NCBI GenBank assembly: GCA_965178125.1
Contig: OZ237748.1
Coordinates: forward strand, 930,001-994,000
Source: Bilabrum cf. latius
Taxonomy: Eukaryota
Direction of reading: 5' to 3'
DNA length: 64,000 nt
Part shown: positions 3 through 54,753 of the stretch, in pieces
Position numbering within the stretch: position 1 is the first letter of the stretch
How the letters are laid out: each line of letters begins with the position of its first letter
Position numbers and translations under genes: made by a program
The notes under the pieces: generated by a model
Database searches by the model: none
What the model saw: only the letters and a program-made list of their open reading frames with translations
Told to the model about the DNA's origin: nothing

Positions 3-2156
3 GACGGGACAGCACCCCACTCCGATGGTACTGCAGTCGAGCAGCATGAGGAGTAGGAAGAGGGTCAATAGCAATCACCACCGGTCGGGGCAGAAGAACC
101 CGGGGAACAAAGCAAAGCATCAGGCATCAGCAGCAGCAGTAGCACCGGCAGCCCCAGCCCCAGCCCCAGTGGCTAGACCCCCCCCCCGACGGCAGGGAGC
201 ACCCACGCACCATTAAGCAGCAGAGGTGTAAGCAGCGCGGGTCCTACACCAGAGCAAGGTGGTGGTGGCGATGACGGCGAAGGGGAGGGGGAAGGGGATG
301 GTGCAGCCGCAGTCGCTTCGATGGCAAAGCCAATCGGCATTGTCAGCCAGGGCACGGCACCTGAGGCAAGCGATGCATTGCATGGTGATGCCCCCGCAGT
401 GCCGGCTCTCACGCCAGGATCTAGCAAAGGCAAAAGCAGGGGCACAATCATGGGCAAAGGCACGCCACCAGCAAAGGCACCGCCCAGCGCGCGCTCCCAG
501 GAATCCAAGGGGTCCAAGGAATCAGCAGGATCTTCATCTTCCAAATTGGCGCTCTCCCCGGAAGCGAAGGCAAGGGAGGCACGGGCCCAGGCTGCTGCCG
601 AACGGCTCTACGGTGCCGCCCAGACTAAGCGGCAGCAGCAGCTGGCCAGGGCCGCTGCCAGGGACCCCGCCTGCACCTTCAGCCCGAAAATCCTGGCCTC
701 TTCGAAGAGGCTCGTGTCCAGGTCCTCGCCCGGTGTGACGAGTGGGAGTGGGGCCAACGGTGTGACGAGTGCTAGCGGGTCCTCCCCTGGGGACCGCCTG
801 TACGAGCAAGCCAAATCCAGGAGGGCGCGCTTGGAGGCGAGGCAGGCCAGCGAGGAGGCGGCGCTCACCTTCAAGCCCAAGATCTCGGCCATGTCCCGGA
901 GGATGGGGGAGCAGCGGAGGAGGCAATCCGGCGGTGGTGGTGGCGGTGGTGGGGGAGAGGGCAAGGAAGGAGGGGGTGGTCAAACCAGCACGGGGGACCG
1001 CCTGTTTGCCCACGCCAAGCGGTAGGAGGAGAAGAGGAAGAAGGAAGCGGAGGCGGTTGCAACCCAAGGATGCACCTTCAAACCTGAAATATCCAGAAAG
1101 GCCAGGGCGGTGGCGGCCTCGAGGGCCAAGAACCCCGACGGCAGTGTGACGAGTGCGGGGGACAGGCTGTACAAGGCGGCCAAGGCGCAGGAAGCCCGGA
1201 AGCAGAAGGCCGTCCGGGAGCAAAAGGAAGCCGAGGAACGTTCGCTGACGTTCCGGCCGCAGACCAACGCCGGAAAGCGCAGGAAGCGGCAGGCCGGGTC
1301 ACCCGATGAGTCGGAAGGCGGTGTGACGAGTGCTCCCGGGGCGGGCGGGAGCCCGTTCGACCGCCTGCACGCCAGCGCCGTGGCCAGCCAGAGGAGGAAG
1401 AGGGAGGCATTCCGGAGGAAAGAGGAGGAGGAGCAATCGGCCAGCCCCTTCAAGCCAACCATCAACGCCACGTCCCGCAGAATGGCGGCGGCGCGATCCG
1501 TTGGCGGGGGAGATGCCGGCGGGTCCAGCGGAACCGGCGCCGCGCGTCCCGCCCACGAGCGGCTCTACAGCCCCGAGACCCTGCGGCGCCGCGCAGCCCC
1601 GGAGCGGAACCAGGGCGGCCTGCTGTCGGAGCTGGAGCAGTGCACCTTTAGGCCCCAGATCGACTCGAGCTCGAGGGTCATCGCGGGGGCCTCCGAGGCC
1701 GTGGGGGGGGGCGACCTCGATGGTGTGACGAGTGCTAGGGGTAGGAGGGGGGCGGGGGGCGGTCCTGGGAGGCACGAGAGGCTGTACCAGCAGGGCCTGG
1801 CGAGCACGCTGAGGAGGAGGCAAGCGGCCTCGAATGTCGGGGGGGAGGGGGGGGAAGAGGCCATGAGGGAGTGCACCTTCCGGCCAAGGGTGACCTACAG
1901 GGGTGTGACGAGTGAGGATGGTGTGACGAGTGCCCTCAGCGCGCACGAGCGGCTGCACTACCACGCCCAGGCGCGGTCGGCCGCCAGGGATGCCCTTGAA
2001 AGGGGGGCGATGGGGGGGGAGGGGCCTGATGCCGGGCTGGCTCTGCTTGCGGGGGGCGGGGCTGCCCTGCCTGTGGCGGCGGGTGTGACCAGTTCTGGGG
2101 GTGGTCGTGGGGAGGATTTGGATGCGCTTCGGGAGGACGGCGCTGTGGTGCTCTGA
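3..2156 (+). CDS. 5'-truncated low-complexity protein with repeated (D/E)RL(Y/F/H)...(C)TFxPxI modules; possibly cytoskeleton-associated
   Basis: One frame open from 3 to TGA 2154-2156 except TAG at 54, 69, 174 and 1023. This joins track ORFs 321-1025 and 1110-2156. The repeat module continues across TAG 1023 (DRLFAHAKR*EEKRK...CTFKPEI vs DRLYKAAKAQEARK...LTFRPQT). Function is inference. Confidence 0.8.
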
Positions 2157-2263
2157 GTGTCGATTTGTGTGACGAGTGGTGCAAGAACGTCGAGCGTACA
2201 GAATGAGTCAAACTGTGGTCGCTGTGTGCAACAACTGCGTCCCTACCAGCGCGCATTGTAACC

Positions 2264-4230
2264 ATGTAAGCAAACGAAACGTACTGAGGCCGTGCCCTAT
2301 GTCGGGGTACGAAGGCTTATCCTAACATCGATGACAATCACGATGCGAACATTCGTTGCTGTTTTTGAAAGACTTCCATGCTCTATACGATTACTTTTGA
2401 CAGGGGAAACACGGTTATTAGCCTGTCAAAAGAGGGAAAGCATGAAGAGCTGCAAGAAATGCTTGACGACGGAGTAAGCGCAAATCGGAAGGATCTTGTG
2501 AGGAGATGCACTTTAGCCTTTAGAAGCCACGTTCCGTGGTGCTTCAGTCAGTAGCATATTGATAATTTAACCCATTCAACATAATGGTCTTGTCTCCAGG
2601 GATTGCGGGGCAATGCATCTGAGACGGTTCCATGTAGATTCTAGATTGGTTCGACATGCTCAAGCAGCCATTGGCAAACCGCAGATAGGCAGCACAGCGC
2701 TCATGTACGCGGCCACAAGGAAAAGCGTTGATTGCATGCAGGTACTACTCAGTGCTGGTGCGAAGCTGGACGATACCAACAAGGTAAGCGGGTCAATAAC
2801 ATTGCGCCTGCGATTGTCGCACATTTCGGAGTTGGCTTGTGCCGGGCCTCAAAGCGATGCATATGGGCAGCACCTGACTTCATAGTGATAGATCTGGCTA
2901 GCACCGTATGGTATGTATTTGCTGCAATGTATCTTTGTTCACACCACGATCGGATCCGACTCTACTCTGCTTGCACGCAGAACGGAGAGACTGCCTTACT
3001 GGCAGCCGCAACGAACCCGACTCAAGGTAGCTTGGAATGCATACGGTTTCTAACTGAAGCTGGAGCAGATATTGATACTGTAACCGACGTGAGGAGGGGC
3101 GTCATGGGCGCGCGAGTCACAATTTCCTTGGGACAACTGTGACCGATCCTAGTCGAGCATATGCTGCATTACTATGATCGCCAAAAGGAGCTTAAGACTT
3201 GGCTAGGAAGAATCGCTAGCGTATCGCAGGACGGCATGTCAGCGCTTACGACGGCACTAAGTACAGTGTGCGAAAGCTCTACCCTGTGCGTGTAGGCATT
3301 GCTGAAAGCTGGGGCAGACCCCGACTGGTGCAATAAAGTGAGAGTCGCCGAGTAGCAGCCCGTTCCAAGAACAAAATAAGCCTTCTCCACTATCAACCTA
3401 CATTCACTACCCGCTTTAAGTATATCATACCATTTATTTTACTCGTTGGGGTCTTAGGCAGGATACACTCCCGCGATGATTGCGGCACAGGCTGGTAGCC
3501 ACGCGTGCCTGAGACTCCTGCTTTAGAATGGCGTTCGCGTCAATTAGCAGGCTAACGTGGGATAACTGCCGATAGTAGACCGCTACTCGTGTTAACGCTA
3601 CTTTACGCGCGTAATGACTTAGGTAGCCAGCAAGTGCACGCCATACATCACCACAGGATGGAAACTCCGGCTTGCATTTAGCAGCAAGCCAAGGGAGAGG
3701 GGAAACCGCACTTGCTTTGCTGGAATATGGGGCCATTCCCTCTTTGATCAACAATGTAGGTACACTAGTATTTATTCGGGCTCAGCTCAAAAATGCGTTT
3801 GCCTGAAAGTCCACACCAGACCCATCAAGCATGCGGCTGATGCACTCTCAAAGACCACTACCTGCTAGGTTTCTGAGCTATTTCTGTCTAGCAGGTAGGC
3901 AAAACAGCTGTAGATTTGGCAGAAAGCAATGATCACCACAAAACGGTGGTATCGATCCGCAATTTTAAGTCGAGAACGCAAACACTGTACAGGTTTCGAC
4001 GGGCAGTGGAGGCCAAGCGGGATGCTGGCATGGTGTTCCAGGCGGCGAGCGAGGGCAGGCCCATGGAGCTGGCCAGGAGGCTGAGGTTGGGTAAGCTGGC
4101 CGGTGGGCTGGATATCACTGGAGAGGTAGAGGACGGTGCGGGCGGGACCAGGGTGGTGGGTCCACTGGATGCAGCTCGATTGGGGGGGCATGACGAGTGC
4201 GTACGGGTGCTTGAGCAGGCAACGGCATGA
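2264..4230 (+). CDS. Ankyrin-repeat protein, one repeat per exon, ending in the shared C-terminal cassette
   Basis: Exons 2264-2265 (AT), 2404-2497, 2685-2783, 2981-3088, 3230-3337, 3458-3556, 3657-3755 and 3895-4230, all GT-AG. Exons give GxT(P/A)L..AA..G....LL..GA repeats. In-frame TAG at 3293, 3524 and 3545; ends in TGA. Confidence 0.85.
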
Positions 4231-4406
4231 TGACTGCGATATTAAATCCCAGTGACTTTTTTTAGATAGGTATGATACTCGTCGGATCATGGTGATCATG
4301 TTGTGGTGTAACGAACGTTCGATCAACTCGGAACGAGCCGTATTCAAGAATAGTCTAGATGTACACTGTGCAAGGTTACTCAGGCTAGATTCAAAGTAGG
4401 GTTCCT

Positions 4407-6291
4407 ATGAATAATTAGGTATGTTCGATTTAGTCTGACACTGGGTGAATCGGACCAGAAATGATGGCAGTCGGGCAACCCCACCAATACGAGCCCCATC
4501 GATCATCCGTTGGCATATCTCTGTCGTTCCTATTGGTTCCAAATTACCGAGGATTGGGCGGAAGGTACCTATACTATTTGCATGAATATACAGACACGGC
4601 CGTACTGCGTCCATGTAGTGATATATTATATTGTTCCATCGCAGGGTAGACAAGAGACAGATCCGGCCAACGCTGGGGCAACAGCTTGGTAAGTTGAACA
4701 TTGACCGCAACGAATCGCTCTAGATATGTTTCGTTTCTTTGCATGTGCACGATTTTTTTCCATTTTGAGTGCAAACTCCCGCTTTGTCGCAGCCTGAGCG
4801 GCGCCTGCTCGCTTGCGGTGTATGCCACGCTGCTCTCCTTTGTCTTGCAAAAAGCAAACGACGGTAAGATGAATCGAATGGTAGTTTTTGATTAAATGCC
4901 GAGTGCCAGGGGCATGGAGTGCACCTTCATTCTAGGACGTGGCCACTACGTCACACGAAGTGCCCGCAGAACACGCGCCTTGTTGCCGTGAACTCTTAGT
5001 GATGTTTAGGAGCATGGGTTGTTTGGTGCCCCTGTGGGCACGATCACCGTGTGGATACAACTGTTAATCACTGCTGCGTCGCTAGTAATAACACACTGAA
5101 TCCAGAATGGCCTCACGCTACACGTCGCCTCTCCTCATCATCATGCAGACGATCCAGACGTCACAACGGTGAGCCAAGAGCTCGATTTGACTGGGCCGCA
5201 ATAGCGCTTCGCACGTGCTCCCGCATCCATCAAACGGCACCGTGTCATCAGCCTTAGTGTTGGCTGCCCACATTCCGCAAACTCACTCCAGCTCGCTGGC
5301 CTCTCTGTAGCCTAGGCTTCGAGGGCGAGGGTTCGCAATCGCCTCCTCCTCCCAACGCAGAAGCCGCTGTGTTTTCGACGCAGCACACACGCACTGAACA
5401 CGAGTTGATAAACCGAATCAAGCGGCATTTCCCAGCACCATTAGCTATGAGAATGATGTGGCCACCCAATCATGCCACTTTGTCCGCAGTGCAACGGTGC
5501 TTGGGCTGACGAGACCTTCTACACGTACGCGATGGTTGTGGCCGGCTGGGGCGTAGCGAATGCCGCTGCCATCACGCTGGTCGGGTGTGCGACTATGGTT
5601 GTCGAGCAATGCGTGGCTTTCATACAGATGCTGCAGATGAGCTCGGTCGCTCTGATGTTCGTGACTGGAGGTTGGGGGTGAGCATAGGCCGTCTTTTCTC
5701 GCAAGTCAGCGAGAACAACGTGAAACGTTTGTAGTGCATCTTGTCTGCGTAGCTAAGGACCATGCCTTATAAATATATCATGCCAATGCCTTGTATCGCA
5801 GGATCTATTTTTACTTCCAGAACCACGACCGCGTGTACGAGTGCGACCGTACTGTGGCAAGGTTCATGGAGGTGGTGTTCTATTTTGCCTTTGTGGGCAT
5901 GTGCCTCTTCGTGTGCCTCATCTGCTGCGTGATGCCCCTGCTAGTATTTGGCATTGTCAGTGTCGCCGCAGCAGCTGGAGGGGAGCAGAGGCGCCTGGAG
6001 AACAACCACGGCGCGCAGCAAGTCGCACGCCAGCGCCAGGGGGACGGGCAGCGTGGCGGCCGCGGCAGAACCACCGAGGACCAGGTCGACGACGGAGACA
6101 ATAAGGGGAAGGAGCACAGGGCGCCCGAGCCGTCAAATGCTATGGGGCAGCCGGAGGACGGTGCTAGCTATACTTTGGGAACAGGCTACGACGTGGCCGT
6201 GCCTGGGCAGCCATCCCACATGCATAGGGAGAACTCACCAATTGATCATGGCGGCATGGCTCCCGATGACTAGGAGACGGTGCCCCTGTGA
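4407..6291 (+). CDS. Small 4-TM membrane protein, paralog 1 (Cys cluster after last helix; loosely TMEM272-like), with extended hydrophilic tail
   Basis: Exons ~4407-4418, 4645-4688, 4793-4863, 20-nt microexon 5149-5168, ~5490-5677 and 5802-6291. Exon phases match the paralogs at 14711 and 17285. TAG 6271 reads through to TGA 6289. The first exon is tentative. Confidence 0.75.
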
Positions 6292-6612: not shown

Positions 6613-6860
6613 TCATCTCATGGCCTCACCCACCAGCCATACGCACTTGTCATGCCCCCGCAGCTTGGCTGCCTCCATCGGCCCCACCACCATGGGATCA
6701 GTCCCGCCCGCCCCGTCCTCCACTTCGCCTTTGATCTCCAGCCCGCCCACCAGCTTGCCAAGCCATAGCCTATTTTCTAGTTCTATGGGACTGCCAGTGC
6801 TTGCTGCCCTGAACACCATCGATGCGTCCCTCTTGGCCTCCACTGCCCTCCTCCAATGCC
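6613..6860 (-). pseudogene. Orphan copy of the ankyrin-like C-terminal cassette
   Basis: WRRAVEAKRDASMVFRAASTGSPIELENRLWLGKLVGGLEIKGEVEDGAGG...GHDKCVWLV matches 3995-4230. No ankyrin exons found upstream; it lies next to the dispersed repeat at 7046. Confidence 0.65.
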
Positions 6861-7045
6861 CTTCCTCCAGGTGATCATTCTCCGGGTCCTCGAAGGCACG
6901 AAGGACCGTCCGTGCCCCGCCCCATCTTGCAAGGCGAGGGTCTCGGTCCACGTGGGCCGAGGCTGCACCCGACTGCCATTTTGAGGCAGCTCCCAAGACA
7001 GCCTCCGTGCCCCGCGCTGTAATTAAAAATGAAATCTACAATTTA

Positions 7046-7490
7046 GTTGGTGAGGCTAGCAAGGTCTCTGGCATTAAGGTCGCTCGGTGGGCGCAGGACC
7101 CGCTCGAGGTGCAGGCCCAAATGCGACGTAGCGATGCGAAGGAGTGAGAGAGAGAGAGCGGCTAGGGAGGGAAGTACAGGGGTGGGGGTGGGGGGGGGGG
7201 GGGGGGGGGGCGAATGGAGGGGTTGGGGAGGGCGGAGCAGAGGGAGAGGGGCTACGGTTCACCGGAAAGGGGGAGGAAGTAGTGGAGGAGAAGATGATTG
7301 GTGGGGTCACCGGGCTGATACGGCGGATTGGAAGGGGGAGGCACATGCCGGGCAGGTGGGGGGTTGGGCATATGTGTGACGAGTGACTCGGGTCAGGGGG
7401 ATCGGATCACCCGACCACATGCGGATGTGGAAGTTGAGAGGTCACAATTAGACTCGAGCGGCAATCAAGCCGCGTGCTATTCGGGCGCTG
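7046..7490 (+). repeat. Dispersed repeat family, copy 1 (decayed coding or transposon-like segment)
   Basis: Aligns by eye with the reverse complement of 52492-52898 and, more distantly, with 54421-54753. Strong purine skew; contains GTGTGACGAGTG at 7374. Confidence 0.85.
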
Positions 7491-7789
7491 CCCAAGGGCA
7501 GCGCTCGCCAGTTTTACTGCGATTCGTGACGCTGCGAATAAACTACTGGATCGTGTTTAGCGTGCTCAAGACAGTGCAGTGCATCAACCACGCAGGAACA
7601 AGAGCCGGTGCTGCAGAGGCTTGGTTTGCCACAAGCCGAGAGTATCTTCGCCTGCTTATGCCTACTGGCTTCCGGTCCCCACCTGGTGCAAAACCGCAGG
7701 GCCCCGACCTGCGGCCATCTCAAGACCGCCAACACAGCTCATGCCATCGCAGCCACGACTGGCACCAGCTCCACCACACTGGTTCCTCT

Positions 7790-10700
7790 TCAGTTCGTTA
7801 TCGGGAACGTGTGCGTGGAGCCCTCTGCCGCCACTGTTGCTGCGTCCAGCACGACCAGCTTGCCGTCGATCACAATGATGGCCCTGCCGTGGGGGATCCG
7901 GAAGGCGTCCTGGGTGAACGAGCCGGTACTGCTCCCCGGGTGCCATTCAGTGGCAGAGGTGACCTGCCCCGCGGCCAAGTCGCTCGTGGGCGAGCATAGT
8001 GCCCTTCCGTCGGTGGCTGTGTACCTTTCGGTCCTGACGCACACCATCTGGGGCGGTGAATCCGGTGCTGAGCTGCCCCCGATCACGACGGGATTCTTCA
8101 CGTCCATGAGCGGGGTGAACGCCGACGGAGGCATCTTCCTGTCGAGCTCGACCGCTCCGGTTGTCATGTCGACAGACGTCGAGTACACGCCCCCCACAGG
8201 ATATGGGTAGCCGCTCTGCACAATGGTGGCATACGCAAAGGCTCCATCGGATTCGGTCCTGACGGGCGATTGCACGCTCTCCGGTACAGCCGAGGACTGC
8301 TCGGCCCAAACTTCTTGCTGCTGCGTGTCGATGACATAGTGACGGTTGGAGGTCACCTTGACATAAAAGCGGCTCGAGTCCCCCACGGGCAATGCGCCGG
8401 GGCTGGGCCAGTTCCCGGAACCGGCGCTGCCCCCCGGCCCGTCGACGAAGCTGTACAGCCCTGACTCTTCCAGCGTCTGCAGGGTTCCGTTGGTGGAGGT
8501 CAGGATCTGGCTGGAAAGCAGAAGCACCGTCTGGCTGTCGTTGGCCATGTTTGCACCAGGGAAGGCTGGCAGCATGCCATCGATGGACGATATCTACGTG
8601 CTCGAGATCTGGCTGTGCTGCCCCTCGTCTGCCCCGCCAATGGTCCACACACCCTGCCGGGTTGCGACCACCGCGTGGTCCCGCCATGCCACCATGGAGG
8701 GGTTGACATTTCCAGCGCACCCATCTGCGCTCACCACCGTGTGCAGCAAGGCGTCCTCGCTGACCACCTCGAGCGAGTCGCCGTTGCAGAACGCGATGAA
8801 GGGGGCGGAAGAGGAGGCATCGCTCGGAGCCACGTGCTGGAAATACTGGCCCGTGTAGTCCTCTCCGTCAGCGATGGCATCCTCCACAGCGGGCGGCCAA
8901 ACCTCACTCATCTTGACTGGAGTCAGCCCGTCGAGCTTGCCCCCTGCATCAGCCCCCGAGGGCCCGATCAGGTAGAACGACTCGTCTTCGTCGGTTCCGA
9001 TGGCAACGCCCGGATGGTGGCCCATTGGCATCTCAATTCCTCTCAGTAGAGTGTAGGTGCCGTCAAAATAGGCCATCTCGGGGTGTTGGTTGCTCACCCT
9101 GAGCGTCGTCGCGTGGAGCCGCCTCCCCCTCGAGTCCTGGTAGAGGCCGTGAACTGAGGTGGCGTCAGACAGCGTGGGCTGATAGAGGCCGTGCTCTGGC
9201 ACCTTGACCCGGAGCCACTCGATGTGCAGGCCATGGGGGCTGCTGCACGTCTGCACTCCGCCCAGGTACCTCCTTTGGTTGTGGAAAACGATCAGTCGGT
9301 CTGCGAGTTTCCGGGCACCGGCCTCGCTGAACGCAACCATGAAGAAAGCCCCTGCTTCTGCCGACTAGGGGTCGCTGGGGTCGATGACGTAGTCGGCCAC
9401 CACGGTGGATGGGAAGTACATGGGCCTGTAGTTCTCCAGGTCCTCTAGAGGGTGGCTCGTGTTGTACTCGGCGGGGTAGTCGACGATCGCGAGCACGCTC
9501 CTGTCCATCGCAGACCTGAAGATAGAGAATGGCCTGTCAGTGCCGGAGCTTTCGCGGATGTCTGCCCCTCCCAGGCTGGTGGACCTCACTTTGAGAACGT
9601 GCACGCCCCCGTCCACATGCACCTCGTGCGTGTGGTAGACGCTGGCCACCGCCCGTATGCACTCGTCACCCCTGCACTCCAAAGCCAGGGAACCTTCGGT
9701 GATGTTCCTCGGCTCGTCACCCAGCACGTCGTCCACAGAGGGGGCGGTCAGGCACGAGTCACGCCTGTCCCACTCGAATGCGTTGGGCACGGTGTCGCTG
9801 GGATTTGCCATGCTCTGTGCGCCCTGCACGGCGTACGGTGCGTCGACCAGTGACTGGATCAGAGCCGATTGCGCGGAATAGCCCATCGACTGCTGGTGCA
9901 CCTCGTCTCCGTTTGGGAGGACTCTAACCTCGCCGTCGACCTAGGCCGGGACTGGGAGCAGCCCCCGGTAGAACATGTTGAACACATTCAGGCCCGTGCT
10001 GTTGGAGGCTTCGCTGAGGCTCCTCGGTGGACCAGGGGCGGCCGCGTGCTCGAAGCAAGCGATACCGTTTGGCGAGGGTGGCGAGGAGTACCGGCCGTAG
10101 GACACGCACACGGGATCTCCCACCTCGAGGCTGCCCATGGGAGCCCAAAGACTAGGCCTGATCGCGAAGGGATCTTCTCCTTGTGCTGGGAACATCTGGT
10201 GGGCCTCCAGCTCGCCACTAGACGGCACGACGTCGAACCTGTGCACCTTGAAAGTCAGCTGGTTGTTCCTTGGGTGCTTTGTCGATGCGACGACGTACAC
10301 GGTTGAGGGGCCCGCGGGCAGCACCGCGGTCACCTCATCCCCGTACGGGAGGGGGTCGAACCTCCACTTTGTGCTCGAGGCAGGGTCGATCACGTAGTGT
10401 TCGGCGATGTTCACGTGTCCCACCTGGAATGTGGCCGGCCTGCCCCCGGTTGTTGTGGGACGGAAATTGTACAGGGGCGCTCCCGGCGGGCCAAGAGCAT
10501 AATCCAGGGCAGGGAGCAGCTCCGGCTGCCCGGCGGGATCCTTGAACACGTAGAGGAAGTGCCTGGCGGACGTTACGGATGAGAACACCAGCCAGGTGTT
10601 GGAGTCGTCCGAGGGGTCCCAGGTCTCGCTCGAGCTCGAGAGGGCCTTGGTGAAGAGGCCCACCGTTGCCTCGCTGGGTTGCGTCGAAGGAGGCTGGCCA

Positions 10701-13036
10701 GGAGGCACCGTGTACTCGGCGTATGCCTGCGTGTCGCCCTCGACCCTCTGCAGCAGGTGGCCGAATGCCTGCCTGCTGGCCCCCAGCATGATGCCGCCCC
10801 TCCAGGCGACCATGTTGAGCTGGCACCTCGTGGCGTGCAGCTGGGTCGATGTCGCGCTGCTGGAGGGCAGCACCATGAGCTTGCCTTCGAATCCCACGCC
10901 CCCGCTCCCCGAACCGGCCTCAGCGTCGCAGTAAACGAGATCCCCCGAGGACGGCTCCTCCATGTACCTTTGCGTCTGGATGATGGCGGGCTGCGCGTCC
11001 CCAAGCCTCGTGAGAGGCACTGGCTCGAGAGAGGTCGAGTTCTTGGCCAAAAAGTACAGAATCTCGTCATAGTCTCTGGCTTGCGTGAAGAATGGGTTCT
11101 GCGTGTATGGGTACAACTGCGCGTGCACCAGTGCCTTGCCGTCCAGCTCGCCAACACTGCCCAAGATGCGGTCGGGTCGCCTGCCGTTAGAATCGTGCCA
11201 CAGCCCCAGGATGTCGTTCTCCGCCCGAGGCATTGTCCTCGGCATTTCCTTCACCCGGAACCACTCGAAGCGGATGTCCATCACCGGCCCGCTGCAGCCG
11301 GGCAGAGTCCTTGACCCGAAGGGATACCTGTTCGTGTCCTACTAGAGCCTGAAGCTGACTTCGTTTGCGAGCATCTCTGGTCCCAGCGGAGACCTCGTCA
11401 GGTTTAGCATGGCGGCGTGGACCTGCCTGGTGTAGGCCTCCGTGTAGGTGTGCACGTACATGACGAGTGCGGGGGGGGAGGACGGGTCCGTAGGGTCGAG
11501 CACCATGTGACGAGCGCTCTTGGCCGCGCCCATCCAGTTCTGGGGCCTGTACTCGTCCCGGGGCCGGGGGGTCTCGGGGAGCGCGCTGCCGTCGGTTAGA
11601 GCAGAGGAGAAGAAGGCCCCTACCACGCCGTCGTGGAAGTAGTACATGGCGTTGTTGCCGTTCCAGTACCCGCCTTGCAGTCCCCGGCTCAGGCGGAGTT
11701 CCTCCAGCGTTTCCTCAGAGTAGTTCCCGGGCTGGAGCGCGATCCGGAGCCGCAAAAGGTGCGTCTCACCCTCGGGTCCCGTGTCACCGGCCTTCATCAC
11801 GTTAGACAGGTACTGGTAGGCGTAGGGGCTTGACGTCTCGAGGAGTGCGTCTGCCTGGGTGATGTCGGTGGGTGCTGCAGGGAGCGCGTCGGTGGTCGAC
11901 GCGCCGGTTGCAACCTCGCAGGGAACAAGGTCGCTGGCGGTGATGGAGGAAGACCCGCCGCCGCCTCCGCCGCCTCCGCCCGGGAATGGTATGTAGTCGT
12001 CGTCCCGCGGACCCCCTCCGCCGCCACCACCCATGTAAGGGTCATCGTCAACCCCGTCACCGCCCTCGTCATCGGCGAAGACCAGGCGCCGGCTCGGGAG
12101 GACGCTGCCCACGACGGAGCCGTCGGGGTTGCGGGCGGCGGTCAGGAGGAACGGCAGAGGTGGAGGGCCTCCTAGGGAGTTCTATGCGACCGTGATACCG
12201 TCCTGGAAGGCGTCCCCTCCCTCCCCCTCGAGCACGTGCTGGGTGAGCTCCTCGGCTTGGGCGGGTGAGAGGATGGGGGGCCCGTTCTCCGTCGGTTCGC
12301 CCGTGGGGATGCCGATGGTTACCTCGCGGGTTGGAGGAATGCTCTGCCTGTCCACATTGACGGGAAGCATCACCATCACTTCAATCGCCGGTGGTTGGCT
12401 GCCTCCACCCGCGTCGCTCGTGTGGTTGAGGGTACCAGATGCGCTCCGGAGGCCTTGCGAGATGTAGTACTCTATCGGGCCGTCGCACAGACCTTCAGTG
12501 ATTTCCTGCAGTATTGAGTATTCAAGATGTTTCACAAGCTCGGCGTGTCGTATGGGTATGCAATAGGCATGGACGACAAACTCGAGTTTGACGCTGCACG
12601 GGGTGAAGACCACCTCGACATATTTTCGCGCTAAACTCACGTTCTCGAAGCTGAACGTGACTTCACTAAGTTCAGTTGCACCGAAGTTTTCGAGAAAACT
12701 TGCTCTTTGAGGATCACATAGCCGCGTAGCAAGGTCATCAGATGATAGCGTACCTGCGCCGTCGCCGTTGCCGTCATCGCTGCCAGATGCCAGCGCAACG
12801 ACGACTCCAACGATGATGCCAACAAGAATGAAGCCTCCAACAGCAAGCCAGCACCACCAGGCGCAACCAAATATGCGTGTGTGGCCTGTATCGTCCTCCT
12901 TGGGCTTCTGGTTGGCCGAGTCGCCACCTTTAGGCTTTGACTGAGGCTTTTCTACGGGAGCTGCAGCCCCCACAGAGTCCTCTTTCATAGGATTTGCATG
13001 ATCAAACTTATCTTCGCTTGGTTTGGCGTCTGCCAT
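7790..13036 (-). CDS. Intronless ~1748-aa type II membrane protein: N-terminal TM helix and a large, probably beta-rich ectodomain; function unknown
   Basis: Six track ORFs (ends 12182, 11342, 9941, 9365, 8594, 7790) share one frame. The five internal stops are all TAG and the last is TGA. ATG at 13036 (MADAKPSEDKF). Hydrophobic segment WWCWLAVGGFILVGIIVGVVVALA. Confidence 0.85.
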
Positions 13037-13912
13037 AACAGACGAAGACAAGAAAAGTATGTGAAAGAGTTTGCGCGAGTCCAGCCTGATCAGGTTTACC
13101 CCAGCGTGGGGGCAAAGGGGGGGTGGAATTCTGAGGGTGGTTGAAGGGGTGGGAGGGGGTGTTGCAAGAGGCAACATTTGATCGGCCATGGCTGTGGCCA
13201 TGGTGGTCCGCACGGTGATTGATTACACTATATCGTACAATATGATAATTTAACGTACTACAAGCCGAATAAGTTGTCTACTTCGAGGCCGACGAGTGTG
13301 GGTTTCCGAAGAAAACTGAGTCCCATACAGGATACACCGGCCTCATCTGTATACATTTATGAAGCAAGAGAACGTTTATATTGTACCTTTTGATGGATGT
13401 TGTAAATCCTAGTCTGGGCCGGAGCCACTTTGGCGTGCCACGCCCGCGCCCGACCCGACTGGCATTTCGGCTCGGGTCCAAAGCAACATTGCCAACGGTG
13501 GAAGCGTTTTCACATGTTTACTGGATCTGTCGGTAATATAGTGATCAGGCCCGAGCGGACTGCTCGCCTCGGGCGCCGAGCACCTGCGCCCGAGCCCGGG
13601 CCAAGCAATCCGCTCGGGCTTTGCCGCACTCCCGAGCTGATGTTTTAATATGTTTTTTCGGCTCGGTCATGGGTATTTTGCATTTATATTGGCCCATAAA
13701 CCCGCGATCCAAAATGCATCATCGCCTGCATCGCGCAAACGTGCAAACGCATCGGCAGCACTCGCAAACACTCGCCCAGAACGTCGACGACTCATCCAAA
13801 CCAACCATTTGCAAGCAAACCACCGACATATTCCAATTCAAGGCTATACATATGCACTTGTCGCTGAGAGTGAATAATCTTTCGGTAGCCTAGCCGAGTA
13901 AAAGACCGTGGA

Positions 13913-14427
13913 ATGGAGGGCCTCTTTGGGCTGGCCGCCAGGGGAGTGGGGCGCATGGACGAAGAGGAGATGGACGGCAGCGGTGCTATGGAGGGCCTCT
14001 TTGGGCTGGCCGCCAGGGGGAGTGGGGCGCATGGACGAAGAGGAGATGGACGGCAGCGGTGCTATGGAGGGCCTCTTTGGGCTGGCCGCCAGGGGGAGTG
14101 GGGCGCATGGACGAAGAGGAGATGGACGGCAGCGGTGCTATGGAGGGCCTCTTTGGGCTGGCCGCCAGGGGGAGTGGGGCGCATGGACGAAGAGGAGATG
14201 GACGGCAGCGGTGGTATGGGGGGCCTCTTTGGGCTGGCCGCCAGGGGGAGTGGGGCGCATGGACGAAGAGGAGATGGACGGCAGCGGTGCGATGGAGGGC
14301 CTCTTTGGGCTGGCCGCCAGGGGAGTGGGGCGCATGGACGAAGAGGAGATGGACGGCAGCGGTGCGATGGAGGGCCTCTTTGGGCTGGCCGCCAGGGGGA
14401 GTGGGGCGCATGGACGAAGAGGAGATG
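13913..14427. repeat. Minisatellite, 75-76 bp unit, ~6.8 copies
   Basis: Unit ATGGAGGGCCTCTTTGGGCTGGCCGCCAGGGGGAGTGGGGCGCATGGACGAAGAGGAGATGGACGGCAGCGGTGCT starts at 13913, 13988, 14064, 14140, 14216, 14292 and 14367, with no spacers. Confidence 0.95.
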
Positions 14428-14710
14428 GGCGGCAATAGGAGCTGGAAACATAGGGGTATGGGTAAGGGGGAGCGAATCATGCAGCCGGATGTCCCGGGTG
14501 ATCTGGTTGACAAGAGCCCCCTCCTTATTGGTATCAACCTGGAGGACGGACCATCGCTGAGGCAGCCTAAGCATGGCTTGTCGAAAGTAGAGAACCTGTC
14601 CGAACATTCGATGCTATGCTGGTTCCGGGTTGGTCAATTAACGGACAGCGATCTGCGTCATAAATCTTGACTTACAGCCATTCATATTTTTTTGATAAGT
14701 TCAATTGATA

Positions 14711-16262
14711 ATGAATTTTGTGAGTCGCTGTCGTGATTGACTGAACCTCCGTATTAATGTTTGGTGTGCGACCACACCGCGCTAGTCGCTCAGTCAACTC
14801 CACTTTGCTCGCAGCAACTCATCATTAACGGCGACAGGGAGGCTGAGGAGCAAAATCCAGGTGTGCAAGCAGTGTTAGCTTCGTATTTTGCTCGTTCCAA
14901 TCATTGCAATTGAGTGCATGCACTCCATGCTGGAGATATCGCTATTCCAATGCTTGATTGTCTCTTAGTAGTACCTTGCAGATGCACCGGTGCCTGCAAT
15001 GTAATAATTTACGCGGTTTATCTGTCTTATGTTGTACCGCTGGCAACTGATGGTGAGATATGATTTGGGGCGCGACTGCGACAGGGTGCCTACGTATTAA
15101 TTGGACGTCGCATCAACCAGGGCAGCCAGAATCGTGGCGTATGCGACTGTCGAAAGGTCATGTGGTTGATCAAGTTCAAGTTTATACGGGAACCCGTCTA
15201 CATGACTGGGTGACGGGTGGGCCTGCAGAATGTCCAAAGGCCACTCAGATCGCATCTACTCCTACTCCGTTTAGGGCTCGCTGCGTGGCACTGGCACTGA
15301 CATCCTCTTTCTCAGCGCAATTTTCCCGCAGACGACGATCAAGTAACTACTGTGAGACGAATCACAACTGCTGAGCATGCGCACTACTTAGTATGTACAG
15401 GGCCGCATGAGATCCTGATGCCCCGCAATGTATGGCCCCGCTAGCCATCGCGAATAGGATCATGTAGTCCCCTCGCAAAAGGGACCGGTTGGGTAGCCGG
15501 ATGATCCTTCATGCATATTGCTGCTCAGCTGCATGCTCCCATTCAAGTCGTGTCGTCCTGACCAGAAACAAAATGCGATGCATTACATTATATGAAGCAA
15601 TGTCAAGCACTGAAGCCTTGCCAGTGCCCTCCCCGCCCCTACACATCCACCGTCTACTACGCGCAGTGTAATGGGGCTTGGCCGGACAAGACCTTCTACA
15701 CCTACGCGATGACCGTTGCGGGATTGGGCGTGGCGCTCGGCTCACTGAACGTTCTGGCCGGGGTCGCCGCTCTGTTGGTGGAGGTGCTACAGCCGATCGC
15801 AAAGTCCGTAATGGGGCTCAACCTGGTCGCGTCCCTCATCACCGGCGGATGGGGGTGAGCATGAGCCATACTTGCACGGATCTTGTGTAGGTCTGCTTGG
15901 AATGCGGCTCTCGCATCGATGCAAGGTCCCGTGTAGACTAGTTCTGTGTGGACGTGCGCATGACCTTGACCCCCCCCCCCCCCTATTGGTCAAACTCGAC
16001 CCTCGGAGTCGACCTTTTGAGTAGCTATCCGTGGATGCCCTGCGACATTGCTGCACCCTTGTCAGGCGACTAGCTTTTACTTCACCCTCGCAGGATCTAC
16101 TTTTACTTCCAGCACAACGACCGCACCAACCAGTGCGACCGAACGGTACGCATCTACGGGGAAGTGTTGTTTTACTTCTCCTTCGTTGGAATGTGCCTGC
16201 TCGTGTGCCTCATCTGCTGCGTGCTGCCCCTTACCATCGGTGCAGCTGCCATGGCAAAATGA
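14711..16262 (+). CDS. Small 4-TM membrane protein, paralog 2
   Basis: Exons 14711-14719 (MNF), 14815-14882, 14982-15052, 20-nt microexon ~15332-15351, ~15667-15854 and ~16094-16262. Peptide CNGAWPDKTFYTYAM...GGWGIYFYFQHNDRTNQCDRTV...CLICCVLP; ends in TGA. Confidence 0.85.
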
Positions 16263-38600: not shown

Positions 38601-39753
38601 GAAGGGGCGCGGCTCCCCGCACTCGTCACATATGGCCGGCATATTTGCTCCCCCTCCCACTGGAATGACGAGTGCTGAGGCGGCGACGAAGAGTGCCAGA
38701 GCGGCCAGAACTGGAAATCGCCGAGGAGGAGCAGGAGGGGCGATGATGGCCAGCACGCGCATGGGGGAATCGGGTGAATCGGCCGGCGAAGGCGACAGAT
38801 CGGCGGCTCGGAAGCGCGTGAGCAGATCCAGCTCCACCCCGCCGAGTCGGGTGCATCGCACTGTGCTGCACCACCCCCGCTCGCAGCTGTCGTCCAGTCC
38901 ATTCGGAATCACGCCCAGGCAGGGAGCAGGCGCCGCGCCGGAGGGGCACTCGTCACATGGAGCAGGCGCCGCGCCGGAGGGGCACTCGTCACAGGGAGCA
39001 GGCGCCGCGCCGGAGGGGCACTCGTCACAGGGAGCAGGCGCCGCGCCGGAGGGACCAGCGGAGCACTCGTCACAGGGGCGTGGGTCCCAATCGGCTCCGA
39101 GTCCGGCAGTGCCTCCCTTTGGGACATCACCTGCTGGTCCGCATCCGCAGGCAGTCTCGAACATGGCCCAAAGCGGGAAGCGGCACGTGAGTCGCCGTGC
39201 ACTTGGCGGCAATGATAGGGGCAAGGGCAGGGGCCAGGATGGGCATGCCATGGGCCGCTCGTCATCCGTGCCACCGAGTGAGCGGCGGCCGGGGAACACG
39301 CGAGGCAGCTAGAGGCCAGATCCCGCCGCCGCGCACGCAAGCGCAAGCGCACGGGCGAGGGACTGGGACTGGACGCGGTTCCAGGACGGAGATTCGATTC
39401 CGGATCCTCGCCCGCAGCGCCGAATGGGGATCGGGCGGGGGAGGAGGGGATCCTGGGCGGGGGAGCTGTCGGAACTCGGAATCGGAAATGCAATCGGACA
39501 AAGCCCGGGAGGGGTACCGGGTACCGCTGGTGCTGGTGCTGGTGCTGGTGCTGGTGCTGGTGCTGGTGCTGGTGCTGGTGCTGGTGCTGGTGCTGGTGCT
39601 GGTGCTGGTGCTGGTGCTGGTGCTGGTGCTGGTGCTGCCTACGATGGTGGTATCGGTACTTCTCCGCCGAAAGAGTGGATGGGCGGACGGCGTGGGTCTC
39701 GGAAGAAGCAGGTCCAGGGGGGTTAGCTCGTGAGCACTGTGGTGATCAGCTGA
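35672..39753 (+). CDS. Large disordered basic protein with degenerate EF-hand-like segments; function unknown
   Basis: Exons 35672-36415 and 36562-39753, with a phase-0 intron. The only internal stops are TAG (36299, 37258, 37390, 37744, 38254, 38368, 39310, 39724); ends TGA 39751. WDREGKGAVSPA*L and VDGSIRIDDLV resemble EF-hand loops. Confidence 0.75.
39526..39636. repeat. (GCTGGT)n microsatellite, ~18 units, encoding poly-(Ala-Gly)
   Basis: Directly visible perfect hexamer run within the coding frame. Confidence 0.97.
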
Positions 39754-42900: not shown

Positions 42901-43605
42901 GAGTTTCAGCATTTCTAGTTCGCGTTTCTGGCAAGTGTGGGACAACAACCTAGGTTTGGACTAGGTCTATGATGACATATGCTAGTCCTGTAACAAGTCC
43001 GCCACGCACGTTGTACGCAGGATGGAAACACGGTATTGCACTGTGTTGCCGCCTAGAAGCGCTTCCCCGAGGAGTTAATGCGCGATCTTATTGAGATAGG
43101 GGCAAGCAAGGCCATCATGAATCACGTGAGAGACGTTCCAAGACGACACAGCTTAATTTCGTCATCCGATGCATAGACCTTACTTTTACCACAAAGAATA
43201 CGGCCAATCAGGATGCTTCAAACATTGTGAATCAATTCCCATACACAATGCTTTAACCATACCCTGCAGCGGGGCCACACGCCCGCCGAGCATGCCATGA
43301 CGAAGGGTTTGGCGTCAAGGACCGCAGCGATTCGATCCTACATCAAGAGGCGCCTCTTTGCTCTGATGGCGTGGAGACGCTGTGGAGAGGCCAAGCGGGA
43401 CGCTGGGACGATCTTCCGCGCTGCAGCTGAGGGCAGGCCCATGGAGCTGGCCAGGAGGCTCAGGCTGGGCAAGCTGGCGGGCGGGTTGGAAATCACTGGC
43501 GAGGTGGAGGACGGGGCGGCTGGTACCCGGGTGGTGGGTCCGCTAGAGGCGGCTCAATTGGGAGGACATGACGAGTGCGTGAGACTGCTTCGTGGCTTAC
43601 TTTGA
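39927..43605 (+). CDS. Ankyrin-repeat protein, ~13 one-repeat exons, ending in the shared C-terminal cassette
   Basis: Exons begin at ~39927 (ATG AT), 40090, 40291, 40581, 40864, 41159, 41420, 41684, 41923, 42125, 42343, 42766, 43021 and 43270. Internal exons are ~99-111 nt with phase-0 GT-AG introns. In-frame TAG at 40333, 41923, ~42853 and 43054; ends in TGA. Confidence 0.85.
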
Positions 43606-51536: not shown

Positions 51537-52491
51537 TTCAGTTATGCCCACATCGTCCCTCGGCTCGTTGTGCATTGCTTTGTGTGGTTGTTATACCGGG
51601 CCTTCTATCTGATGCAATGCACAACGAGGAGGGGAACGCTGAATTTCCATTGGGCCTTCTATCTGATGCAATCCATAGTAGCTCAATGGAAATTCAGTGT
51701 GTCGCACCTTGCTCTCCTATCGCATATGGATACACCTGGTACGTAGTGCCGCGTTCGACTTACATGAGACTGCCGATGCTTCTGAACACAGCATCGGGAT
51801 GGGGGGATTGTGTATCAGACGTGTCGAAGACTGGTGTCCAAAATCGAGTTAGGACATGCGACGCTGAGATGCCCCATTAGGACACAATCCGGTGTCCAAT
51901 TCTTTCCTCCGAGAATATTTGCCGTACAGCTCTCAAAATTTCCCAAAAATTAGAACTGCCCAAGATCTACGCAAAATTGGCCTCAGATGTGAGCACACGA
52001 AAATGTGGATGCCAGGGGCACTTCTTACAGTCACTGTGGCATACCTCGGGGAACCGCAGACCTTTCTCAACACAATATTACGTACAGATGCCATCATTAA
52101 AACGGAAAGCTGCCGAAGTAAAAGCAAAATAGTGCCGAATAGACAAGTTTAGGAGAACAACTGACTTCCACGGGCTTCTATCCGACAAGGATTAGGATTA
52201 GGGGTACTGAGATCACACGTTGTACACAGCACCCTAATCTCGCAGACAGTCACACATGGTTGCAGTTGGTTTCCTCCGAGAGCCCATCCTCAAAGTTACC
52301 AAAAAAGAAAACTGGCCTGAGGCGCTGGGGACGCAGCAGCGGCCTCCCGAGCCCCGCCAGAAGATACAGAATTGGACCGGCTCTTTGATGCCGCCCGACG
52401 TTCAGCGCGCTCAGTACGCTGCTATGATGCCTTACTTGAATCCATAGTATAGCAAGAGGTTAAGAAGCGAAAACTGGCGAACGCTGCCCCT

Positions 52492-52898
52492 CAGCGCCCG
52501 AATAGCACGCGGCTTGATTGCCGCTCGAGTCTAATTGTGACCTCTCAACTTCCACATCCGCATGTGGTCGGTGATCCGATCCCCCTGATCCGAGTCACTC
52601 GTCACACATGCCCAACCCACACCTGCCCGGCCTGTGCCTCCCCCTTCCTATCCGCCTCATCAACCCAATGACCCCACCGATCATCTTCTCTTCCACCATT
52701 TCCTCCCCCGTTCCGGTGAACCGTCGTCCCCCCCTCCCTTTGCTCTACCCTCCCCCCCCCTAGCTGCCCTCTCTCTCTCTCTCTCTCCCTCTCTCGCACT
52801 CCTCCGCATCGCTACGTCGCATCTGAGCCTGCTCCTCGAGCGGGTCATGCGCCCACCGAGCGACCTCAATCTCAGAGACCTTGCTGGCCTCACCAACG
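52492..52898 (-). repeat. Dispersed repeat family, copy 2 (inverted relative to copies 1 and 3)
   Basis: Reverse complement of 7046-7490. About 100 bp (52492-52600) is nearly identical. Confidence 0.85.
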
Positions 52899-52899
52899 A

Positions 52900-53878
52900 A
52901 GAAGTCACGGACTAGCGGGCTAACAGGTTATTTCAAAGCTCTGGACAAGATTGAACAGATCATTAGGGCGCTTTAGCCAACAAGTTCTAGCAGTTCGTCG
53001 GATATTCGTACATAGAGCAGCTGTCGAACTCTGCAAGTGGAGGCAAGGATCTGTTCACATCTGCGAGAATAGTCGAAGGATTGTGCTTCGCCTCATCGTC
53101 GAAGAGGGCCTTTCTATCGACAACACTGACTTCGTGGGCTCTGCTTGGAGGAGACTGAGGGCAGAAGTACTCACCTTTCTGCAGTCTGTAGATGAGACGG
53201 AGAGACCGCAGGTGCAGTACTTCCTTCAGGCCATGTGTGACATTGCAGCCCTTCTGCATGTTTCTAGCGAAGTCAAAAGTATATTTTCTATTCTTGCGTA
53301 CGTATCGGATGGTGCAAGGTACGGGGCTCGTAAAATCATCACAGTGGAGCGGCTTCTGCTGATGCGGTGCAAGCTGTTAACACAAGCACTTGCTCGCGCA
53401 GTGGGTCCGAGCATGGACAGCAGAGGCTGGCCTTGCACCTGGTGCAATTCCGCACATTGAGAAGGAACTCTTCAAGCAACCTGCTAAGAAGAAGAGAGTT
53501 GAAAGTACGGCAGCGCACATCCGGCAAGAAGCAGAAGAAGACGAGACCAAGGCAGCCGAGGGGTATCTCGATATTGCTGTGCCTGACACCTTGAACGAAG
53601 TTGAGTTGGAAGTCGCCATTGCATTTGGAGAAGTAGCTGCTGGTGGAGATAGTGAAGCTGTGCGGATATTAGATGACTTGATTAGAAGCAATGATGAGGA
53701 GGGCGATACCAGCGATGATGATACCGATACCGAACTGGACGAAGATCCAGTTCCACGAGGCGGTGCTGCAGCTATGGAAGATGGCTCTGACGATGATACA
53801 ATCGAATCCAGCGACGAAGATGAAGGACACCACGCAGATGTTGAGATATACGAGGATTTAGACGATACATTCATGTAA
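52900..53878 (+). pseudogene. Frameshifted ORF remnants with an acidic C-terminal region
   Basis: Overlapping frames 52951-53460 and 53390-53878 (PAKKKRVE, D/E-rich tail) follow repeat copy 2. No recognisable domain. Confidence 0.35.
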
Positions 53879-54227
53879 CGTGCCTGGGTGGGCCGCGTCG
53901 CACTGTGCATGTGTCACGGGCGCGTAGCGACTCACGATGTGTCGGGCCTTTGCATTTAACAGCCCCGCAGGGCCCATTTTTTTGATTAATACCACTATAC
54001 AACTACATTTTCTGTTCAAAAACAATAGGACACAGTTTGAGCAAAACTGCGGCCAATAGGACACAATTTAATAGGACATCGACCCCGATTTTCTGACATG
54101 TCTGTTGTGTATCCATGCAAGGATTGGTTACCCTCTCCAATTCCCTTAAGCTACTTATCGAAACCCAGGACCCCTCCCACCTCTCCCCCCCCCCCCACAT
54201 CCCTGCCCTGCCTGTGCCCCATGCTTC

Positions 54228-54290
54228 ATCCACCCCGTCCACCCCGTCCACCTTGTCCACCTTGTCCACCTTGTCCACCTTATCCACCTT
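54228..54290. repeat. 9-bp tandem repeat (TCCACC(C/T)(C/T)G), ~7 copies
   Basis: Directly visible. Confidence 0.85.
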
Positions 54291-54420
54291 TCCTCCATTC
54301 CGCCCACCCCCTTGTCCCTTCACCTCAATCATGCCACACGACTTGTCGACTCGCCCGAGCGCTGTACCCAGCTCGCGACCTCAGCCTTACCTTAGAGGTG
54401 CAAGCCCCTCACGCGCTATT

Positions 54421-54753
54421 GGTTAGTGAGACTAGCAGGGTTTTTGAGATTGAGGTCGAGCGGTGGTCTCAAGACCGGCTCGAGTTGCAGGTCCAGATGC
54501 GATGCTGCGACGCGGAGGAGAGAGAGAGCGGTTGATGAGGCCAGGTCAGTGATGAAGAGCAGGAACGGCGGCAAGGGGCGGGCGAGGGTGGGATCAGGGC
54601 GGAGTAGAGAGGGGTATAGTGGTTCACCAAGCGGGTGAGGGAGTAATGGAGGGAGAGGAGATGGTTGGTGGGCTCATCCGGTTGATACAGCGGATCGGAA
54701 AGGGGGAGGCACAGGCCGGGCAACTGGAGGTGTGGGCATGTGTGTGACGAGTG
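54421..54753 (+). repeat. Dispersed repeat family, copy 3 (diverged)
   Basis: Collinear with 7046-7385. Similarity stops at GTGTGACGAGTG (54742-54753). Confidence 0.75.

Follow-up and report, generated by a model that had tools for sequence, protein, structure and literature searches.

An exact 12-nucleotide word recurs through protein-coding DNA of a eukaryote in which TAG appears to be a sense codon

A 12-nt word is exact, over-represented and free of shared flanks

Why should one short DNA word recur letter for letter in unrelated genes of a eukaryote, and how do its copies come about? The question is raised by a 64,000-nt stretch of DNA (contig OZ237748.1, positions 930,001 to 994,000; this whole 64-kb stretch is called the window below, and its first letter is position 1), in which a sequence-only reading had noticed about 39 exact copies of the 12-mer GTGTGACGAGTG, here called the word. 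We counted exactly 39 copies, 30 on the + strand and nine on the - strand, the first at 733-744 and the last at 54742-54753, at a density in the window of about 1 per 1.6 kb. In 100 shuffles that preserved dinucleotides, the mean was 0.01 copies and the largest value was 1. The word tops all 12-mers of the window, the runner-up being an (ACCAGC)n microsatellite with 24. Eight copies lie in 733-2178, 13 in the gene at 30433-34290 and 11 in 36208-37915, while the others are scattered.

The copies had also been described as lacking shared flanks, and when all 39 were aligned with 25 nt on each side no conserved column was found outside the 12 letters. Weak preferences only were seen, for G before the word (21/39) and for C (18/39) or A (12/39) after it. 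Most copies are solitary, and the nearest pairs stand 15-30 nt apart with differing spacers, not head to tail with shared unit boundaries as in a microsatellite or minisatellite. The few local arrays that hold copies are a 24-nt array at 32435-32500, a 36-nt array at 38947-39064 and 15-nt arrays in the metagenome locus L002. Around the copies we found no target-site duplication beyond what tandem arrays yield. The word itself has no inverted repeat and no parent element was seen in the window, so that it resembles neither a transposon or miniature inverted-repeat transposable element nor an excision footprint.

Two candidate clues to the origin of the copies were set aside. Close pairs were considered as a sign of homing, but six pairs within 30 nt were observed against the approximately four that we estimate from local copy density. 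The notion that the core is the 9-mer TGACGAGTG, joined to a 5' GTG derived from the target (60 versus 45 copies), was dropped as evidence; about half of the 21 extra TGACGAGTG 9-mers turned out to belong to paralogous protein motifs, namely ankyrin-like GHDECV and a lectin-like family, or to stem from tandem duplication. Text searches of the literature, with supplementary files outside their scope, returned primers and unrelated sequences only and no printed description of GTGTGACGAGTG or its 10-nt core. To our knowledge, no solitary exact 12-mer of this kind has been described in eukaryotic coding sequence.

The word is a feature of the nucleic acid

The tripeptide Val-Thr-Ser (VTS), which is one reading of the word, is the sixth commonest tripeptide in the 17 long open reading frames (ORFs; 6,894 codons), with 23 occurrences against 1.8 expected from amino-acid frequencies. 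The sequence-only reading had proposed a signal at the level of the nucleic acid and had suggested two ways of checking it, namely whether VTS is nearly always spelled by the same codons and whether the excess outlasts a null that preserves codons and peptides. GTG-ACG-AGT spells 20 of the 23 VTS, whereas codon usage predicts a probability of 0.014 per VTS; AGT is a rare serine codon, accounting for 9-12% of serine codons. For the null we permuted synonymous codons within each ORF, thereby keeping the protein and each ORF's codon usage, and in 10 ORFs (8,150 codons, 500 runs) obtained a mean of 0.38 and a maximum of 3 copies, compared with 33 observed. The excess thus survives. Moreover, a repeat of peptide origin would be expected to show varied synonymous codons in one frame, while the word is read in five ways and also has non-coding copies. 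GTGTGACGAGTG is therefore a nucleic-acid-level feature, independent of peptide and codon usage.

Related metagenome loci carry the same word

We scanned metagenomes for pairs of copies 3-33 nt apart and obtained at least 120 loci, most of which are short tandem repeats or satellites of other organisms that contain the word by chance. Among the matches listed, 16 loci (87 kb, 52 exact copies) resemble the window in their GC content of 0.55-0.62, their solitary copies and their unrelated flanks, and these also show pairs 15-21 nt apart together with the signature of TAG as a sense codon that is described below. On this count, which carries an ascertainment bias, the word is enriched in related species, and these come from several metagenomes. 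One of the 16, L064/L108, is collinear with window 22386-24524 at 53-62% protein identity, which indicates a species different from the host of the window.

As unrelated satellites hold it too, the word should not by itself be taken as a marker of the lineage. Unrelated metagenome contigs with a GC content of 0.45-0.52 and without the TAG-sense signature (L005, L006, L046, L090, L106, L118, L037, L073 and others) contain satellites in which this 9- to 12-nt unit recurs at periods of 9, 11/33, 22, 32 or 41. A scan of viral contigs for the word gave only two low-complexity CAC/TCG-rich stretches.

Copies favor long ORFs, the sense strand and one frame

Frame and strand independence, as claimed in the sequence-only reading, was not borne out. 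With TAG as sense, ORFs of 300 aa or more make up 56% of the window and hold 35 of its 39 copies (P = 6e-6). We called the coding strand and frame by a codon-usage score trained on eight ORFs with independent support and applied to 240 nt on each side with the copy masked; in 35200-38000 the strand was taken from ORF length and codon score only. By this score the window has 21 sense VTS, two sense CDEC, five antisense TRHT and one antisense HSSH copies, with 10 unclear, and the 16 related loci have 33 VTS, two CDEC, four TRHT and four HSSH, with nine unclear. Hence the sense strand holds 58 of the 72 confidently assigned copies in the window and related loci, against 40% expected from natural GTG and CAC sites in viable phases (P = 3e-12). 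VTS is the reading in 54 of the 58 sense copies, against 64% expected from GTG sites (210:117 VTS:CDEC), and the frame that contains TGA occurs only at ORF ends, at 27949 and, on the - strand, at 19968. This filter on frame looks like selection.

The VTS and TRHT readings agree in codon phase. On either side, the base next to the word is distributed as it is around ordinary GTGs of the xGT|G phase (G before, 0.61 versus 0.64; C after, 0.46 versus 0.43), which fits three codons GTG-ACG-AGT put between xGT and Gyy, typically GGT|GCN, and would explain the common peptide G-VTS-A. The flanking bases are compatible with a 9-nt and a 12-nt event alike and do not separate the two.

Copies turn over between orthologs and decayed copies are few

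The host gene richest in copies encodes a protein prenyltransferase alpha-subunit homolog (30433-34290, +; 13 copies). Two partial orthologs of this ORF were found among 1.8 billion representative proteins, namely P0121 (47-53% identity) and P0122. Seven window copies fall within the parts aligned to these proteins; six of the seven have no VTS opposite and one is shared, and P0121 has three VTS, two of which are unmatched in the window. Judging from these alignments, copies turn over between orthologs. At the shared place, 31781, the residue before VTS is S in the window and G in the ortholog, as if only the first base of the xGT codon had changed. That the copy is nonetheless letter-perfect in the window points either to repeated insertion into a single site or to its being maintained as nucleotide sequence. 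Further searches added little. P0166, a cluster-mate of P0121, is 99% identical to it with no indel, P0121 as a query matched nothing but itself, and the 980-aa prenyltransferase ORF as a query gave no match, low-complexity words swamping the search. The contigs of P0121 and P0122 were not among the fetched metagenome loci.

Beside its 39 exact copies the window has 15 copies with one mismatch (0.2 expected) and 12 with two (5.8 expected), and beside their 52 exact copies the 16 related loci have six with one mismatch (0.45 expected) and 10 with two (8.8 expected). Several one-mismatch copies are tandem duplicates of one another. By our own calculation, a neutrally decaying family at steady state would hold about as many one-mismatch as exact copies. 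Decayed copies are scarce by that measure, and the copies are consequently either young and quickly lost or kept exact.

The copies are present unchanged in independent runs

The stretch is present in seven public runs from three studies. In runs X5, X6 and X7, from two studies other than the probable source, a contig joins 29825 to 30189 and so drops a 363-nt GT..AG intron (29826-30188) of the Nop56 gene on the - strand; run X1 keeps this intron. The spliced joint points to RNA-derived sequence in X5-X7, an origin read from that joint alone; no run is recorded as RNA, the kind assigned to X5-X7 is a guess, and X5 is marked as probably DNA. Contigs of these runs span 31190-32638 (six copies), 24818-26078 and 35456-36416 with 0 differences and 0 gaps. 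The sequence-only reading had held that the word would fall as a signal if it were an adapter or assembly artefact missing from independent reads, and the unchanged copies in contigs of two other studies speak against this. Among the contigs of the spliced-Nop56 runs no 12-nt omission was found at the copies, which accordingly do not behave as very short introns, a rare isoform being possible.

TAG appears to be a sense codon in the host

Long frames of the window are broken by eight stops, every one of them TAG (1023, 8596, 11341, 11344, 12184, 21228, 23852 and 34006). With TAG read through, ORFs reach 1,810 aa (7790-13222, six TAG), 1,285 aa (30433-34290) and 1,075 aa (36526-39753). TGA closes 23 of 25 long ORFs and TAA is never inside them. 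The prenyltransferase gene can be aligned with the metagenome protein P0122 both before and after TAG 34006, the TAG itself falling in an alignment gap. In the related loci, reading through TAG only extends ORFs from 526 to 2,708 aa (HECT ligase, L088), from 372 to 1,722 aa (SMC protein) and from 294 to 1,429 aa (CLU/TPR protein). Loci with the TAG-sense signature include L013, L088, L108, L110, L102, L034, L036 and L002, in which SMC, HECT and CLU/TPR domains span many TAGs. In one HMMER alignment TAG stands opposite K in a TPR repeat, and by eye it stands at K/R/Q-type places in SMC and HECT motifs. From these frames and alignments TAG appears to be a sense codon in the host and its metagenome relatives.

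The host could not be matched to a close relative. Its Nop56 homolog (28097-30230, -) has best matches at only ~50-60% identity, with no near relative among them, and in a quick Nop56 tree its branch was very long, fell outside animals, green plants and diatoms and could not be placed. The 64-kb window yielded neither a tRNA nor any Rfam family. Three paralogous two-exon gene segments (5485-5939, 15662-16231 and 18030-18643) have conserved exons and unconserved GTGAG...CGCAG introns, which indicates that the host has ordinary introns. Amoebophrya does not fit as kin of the host, since its genome is AT-rich with all three stops translated. Reassignment of UAG only is listed, in PMC11687900, for the Blepharisma code, some phyllopharyngean ciliates, a rhizarian, Iotanema and Scotinosphaera. 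The host is alike in that TAG is sense and TAA is unused in frame, a likeness that concerns the host and not the word. The main stop of the host is TGA (23/25 long ORFs) and not TAA, whereas the phyllopharyngeans of PMC11687900 use TGA least, and these ciliates do not fit as host kin on stop-codon usage.

Position of the copies and neighboring repeats

The gene at 3-2156 (+) has seven + strand copies, all of them read as VTS and all in linkers between its internal CTF(K/R)P...(D/E)RL(Y/H) repeats. They lie at 733-744 (as G-VTS-G), 760-771, 1144-1155, 1321-1332, 1723-1734, 1903-1914 and, 18 nt on from the last, 1921-1932. A further + copy at 2167-2178, in the orientation of this gene, is non-coding and begins 10 nt past the TGA stop at 2154-2156. 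This copy and the one at 19968-19979 (-) had both been placed outside coding sequence. The placement stands for the former and not for the latter, whose TGA (19976-19974) ends a 181-aa ORF at 19977-20519 (-), although the coding score of that ORF is poor.

The + copy at 23641-23652 is antisense to the ORF at 23394-24407 (-), where it reads TRHT, and borders a 74-nt tandem array. The ORF at 24928-26892 (+) encodes a 654-aa orphan that has hydrophobic segments as well as stretches with a very high Cys content (CCRY, CFCCCV, WCWCWCC). Its single CDEC copy (25911-25922, +) lies within one of these stretches, and a second + copy at 26558-26569 reads VTS. At 27949-27960 (+) the word provides GTG-TGA, the stop of the ORF at 27037-27954.

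In the prenyltransferase gene the copies sit in low-complexity loops between conserved W..RR repeats. Eleven + strand copies read VTS. At 31469-31480 the ortholog P0121 has no VTS, the copy at 31490-31501 is unmatched in P0121, and opposite 31724-31735 P0121 has QGTHG. At 31781-31792 the ortholog has VTS too (GSVTSAAGLAL versus GGVTSAAGLAL), and this is the sole such copy. The copies at 32309-32320, 32969-32980 and 32990-33001 also read VTS, as does 32435-32446, after which a 24-nt repeat holds two copies with one mismatch each. P0122 has GRSHTDEDEDECMS at the point of 33266-33277, while 34133-34144, past the in-frame TAG 34006, and 34163-34174 are unmatched in P0122. The remaining two copies in this gene are 33159-33170 (+), read as CDEC, and 32712-32723 (-), antisense and read as TRHT.

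In the ORF at 35243-36538, the - copies at 36208-36219 and, 15 nt from it, 36223-36234 are antisense and read TRHT, and the + copy at 36375-36386 has the VTS phase if TAG is sense, its strand being unclear by score. In the ORF at 36526-39753 and its neighborhood, VTS is read at 36830-36841 (+), at 37133-37144 (+, marginal score) and at 37904-37915 (+). Antisense TRHT is read at 36708-36719 (-, low score), 36888-36899 (-) and 37197-37208 (-), and antisense HSSH at 37771-37782 (-). The frames that had been named beforehand were all correct (VTS at 733 and 31469, CDEC at 25911 and 33159, TRHT at 36208 and 32712, HSSH at 37771), as was the stop supplied at 27949; an LVT reading exists in the window only as a near-match.

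The last three exact copies lie in a dispersed repeat with three copies in the window, at 7374-7385 (+, coding status unclear), at 52596-52607 (-, within the second copy of the repeat) and at 54742-54753 (+, within the third). Each copy of this module (7043-7545; 52330-52900, -; 54419-54753) stands downstream of a different gene, and its orientation relative to that gene is always the same. Over 80 nt two of its copies are 100% identical, and the third stops resembling the others precisely where the word ends, at its final base. We considered the repeat as a template RNA and rejected it, as its fold is modest (z = -2.4 on the - strand, -1.0 on the + strand) and it has no Rfam match.

An ankyrin-like module occurs five times (4000-4221; 6701-6852, -; 21915-22026; 22356-22580, -; 43378-43590) and again in L064 at 1-400. 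It ends in GHDECV, encoded by CAT GAC GAG TGC GT, which has nine letters in common with the CDEC frame of the word. The likeness among the modules ends just past GHDECV, at a probable GTGCGT 5' splice site, which may be chance or a link to the origin of the word.

Other repeats in the window are a tandem array at 59311-62432 of about nine 326-nt units, most of them 99% identical, with two irregular spacings (508 and 358), and tandem arrays at 13865-14474 (76-nt units) and 23235-23678 (74-nt units), the second of which is inside - strand ORFs and ends beside a copy of the word. Hexamer (GCTGGT)n runs at 31860-31958 and 39501-39677 encode Gly-Ala repeats. The depth of sequence words was in the thousands, in all four sequencing runs compared, for the bin that contains the first of these hexamer stretches, indicating that the hexamer is very abundant genome-wide.

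Discussion

How, then, do exact copies come to stand in so many genes? We favor, at a probability of about 0.4, a lineage-specific word of which exact copies are continually re-written into transcribed, mostly protein-coding DNA and filtered by selection. A 12-letter word is too rarely made by point mutation, so that some generator must exist, and since the same word is found in species that differ at about half of their protein positions, the generator should be the same in those species. We infer that copies arise by insertion and not by substitution. New exact copies would be inserted by a fixed template or a sequence-specific enzyme. Either a 12-nt word would add four codons or, equally, a 9-base cassette of three codons, GTG-ACG-AGT, would be put into an existing GTG, and neither addition would ever shift the reading frame. 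After selection, VTS copies would persist in Gly/Ala/Ser-rich, probably disordered loops, CDEC copies would be rare, and copies with an in-frame TGA would persist only at the very end of an ORF, as its stop codon. A more specific form is possible, and we hold it more tentatively: an enzyme or ribonucleoprotein devoted to the task, its fixed template conserved lineage-wide, would place three or four codons, always the same ones, into transcribed genes at their GTG sites and so keep producing exact copies anew.

Several observations weigh against re-writing. No writer, template or donor element was found in the 64-kb window. Blind insertion into DNA does not by itself explain the 4:1 excess of sense copies, the excess in ORFs or the shared exact copy at 31781, which is letter-perfect in the window even though its place is shared with the ortholog. 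All three fit selection on the word, or a process linked to transcription, and the shortage of decayed copies also fits purifying selection. A clean pair of filled and empty sites was not seen at the DNA level, the comparison being with protein orthologs only (~50% identity), whose loops cannot be aligned base by base. Finally, the related loci were ascertained by the word itself, through two close copies, and their counts are for this reason biased upward.

The strongest competitor is a selected, cis-acting signal of the sense strand, either a place on the mRNA where an abundant RNA-binding factor would attach or a site within the non-template DNA strand, in which purifying selection would keep copies exact and the usual frame, VTS, would be tolerated. 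We regard this as a serious, if doubtful, alternative. It would account for the sense excess over the site-based expectation, the enrichment in long ORFs, the paucity of decayed copies, the retention of copies in RNA-derived contigs, the identity of the word in a relative at ~55% protein identity, and the copy that stands at an orthologous place behind a different residue (S versus G). Sense VTS copies also put TGA in the +1 frame of a lineage that stops on TGA, which may, in our view, be connected with such a signal. However, six of the seven copies that could be compared are unmatched in orthologs, 14 of the 72 assigned copies are antisense, two copies truncate ORFs, and genes hold from 0 to 13 copies with no visible logic but low-complexity content. 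Neither a binding factor nor a complementary RNA was found by the Rfam scan of the window or from the fold of the dispersed repeat. A generator would be needed in any case, because point mutation seldom makes a 12-nt word. Re-writing and a selected signal can both hold. Both explanations that the sequence-only reading had offered, a binding site for an abundant factor and a mutational drive, stay in contention.

Less probable by a wide distance is that the copies are excision footprints of a mobile element, such as a sense-tolerated intron-generating transposon or germline-limited DNA removed in development, the scar being a GTG target duplication plus a few terminal bases. The word does have the form GTG-TGACGA-GTG, like a 3-nt duplication around six bases, its net length is a multiple of three, and scars regenerated by an enzyme would not decay. 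Elements of the intron type (introners) are moreover known for sense bias and gene enrichment. On the other hand, the window contains neither a transposase nor a full-length element bounded by halves of the word, and its dispersed repeats are gene families, the ankyrin-like module and the downstream-flank module. No inverted repeat is formed by the six inner bases of the word, the flanking bases are without duplication, and the introns seen are ordinary GTGAG...CGCAG introns that lack the word. These observations weaken the footprint explanation.

An explanation by telomerase-type addition is likewise weakened and, in our judgment, quite unlikely. It supposes single additions at internal breaks, with an RNA template CACUCGUCACAC (a 9-base repeat and a 3-base alignment region) copied once onto a 3' end in GTG. 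The word is G/T-rich, telomerase templates typically have a 9+3-like terminal redundancy, the flanks are like ordinary GTG sites, and a fixed RNA template would account for an identical word in diverged relatives. Yet none of the 91 copies in the window and the 16 related loci has a second unit at 9-nt spacing, as interstitial telomeric repeats would, the closest spacing being 15, and the metagenome contigs with (GTGTGACGA)n arrays come from other organisms and are without the signature of TAG as sense.

An origin at the protein level, through a favored peptide GVTSA with codon bias or through collapsed tandem repeats, has hardly any probability left. The rank of VTS among tripeptides and the presence of some copies within short tandem arrays would agree with it. 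It is contradicted by the use of a serine codon as rare as AGT in 20 of 23 VTS and by the peptide-preserving shuffle, which leaves the excess unaccounted for (0.38 versus 33). The same 12 letters also occur as CDEC, TRHT, HSSH and a stop and outside ORFs, and outside those letters the flanks are unlike one another. An artificial 12-nt insert would likewise leave frames open, but an artefact of adapter, barcode or assembly is contradicted by X5, X6 and X7 contigs that match the window with 0 differences across copies and by the spliced Nop56 form in the same runs, as well as by the word in unrelated metagenome assemblies of relatives and by the occurrence of one-mismatch copies.

Highly iterated genome words are well known in bacteria, for example HIP1 of cyanobacteria, DNA uptake sequences, Chi and KOPS. 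Like these, GTGTGACGAGTG is short, exact and over-represented by a factor of hundreds to thousands (39 copies versus 0.01 in shuffled sequence), lies largely in coding sequence in several frames, is common to related species and exceeds what codon and peptide usage yield, and it is biased in orientation as Chi, KOPS and uptake sequences are. It differs in that its host is a eukaryote with introns, that its bias follows the direction of genes and not, as far as visible, replication, and that it clusters in low-complexity loops of some genes and is absent from others; unlike HIP1 it is not a palindrome. No candidate for a machinery that recognizes the word (uptake receptor, RecBCD, methylase or translocase) was found in the 64-kb window.

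Rickettsia palindromic elements are 100-150 bp long, have inverted repeats and a fold of their own, and insert in frame into genes. The word shares with them a selfish appearance, translation, the keeping of frame and a place in tolerant parts of proteins. It is only 12 nt long, however, and has no inverted repeat, target duplication or parent element in the window. The repeats in coding sequences of Eimeria and the short interstitial telomeric repeats at breaks in mammals are tandem runs of 3- to 7-nt units. With these the word has in common a nucleic-acid repeat translated in several frames in disordered segments, and templated addition at breaks is possible in both, but the word is solitary, with no 9-nt tandem unit in the 91 copies. 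By analogy, then, the nearest counterparts of GTGTGACGAGTG in behavior seem to be HIP1, uptake sequences, Chi and KOPS on the one hand and, on the other, small selfish elements that insert in frame.

The TAG-sense code and the unplaced Nop56 make the host of interest in its own right. If the word is a selected signal, eukaryotic coding sequence would bear a 12-nt code laid over it, which would need a reading factor. If copies are written by a templated or sequence-specific process, this would be a new way for genomes to alter proteins, with a steady, frame-neutral supply of one tripeptide to disordered loops and, occasionally, a ready-made stop. A word-writing system of this kind would represent a self-propagating sequence smaller than any yet known, or else the first equivalent in eukaryotes of the uptake, Chi and HIP1 words, and the proteins of this lineage would be continually seeded with Val-Thr-Ser, and its sense strands with a TGA-bearing 12-mer.

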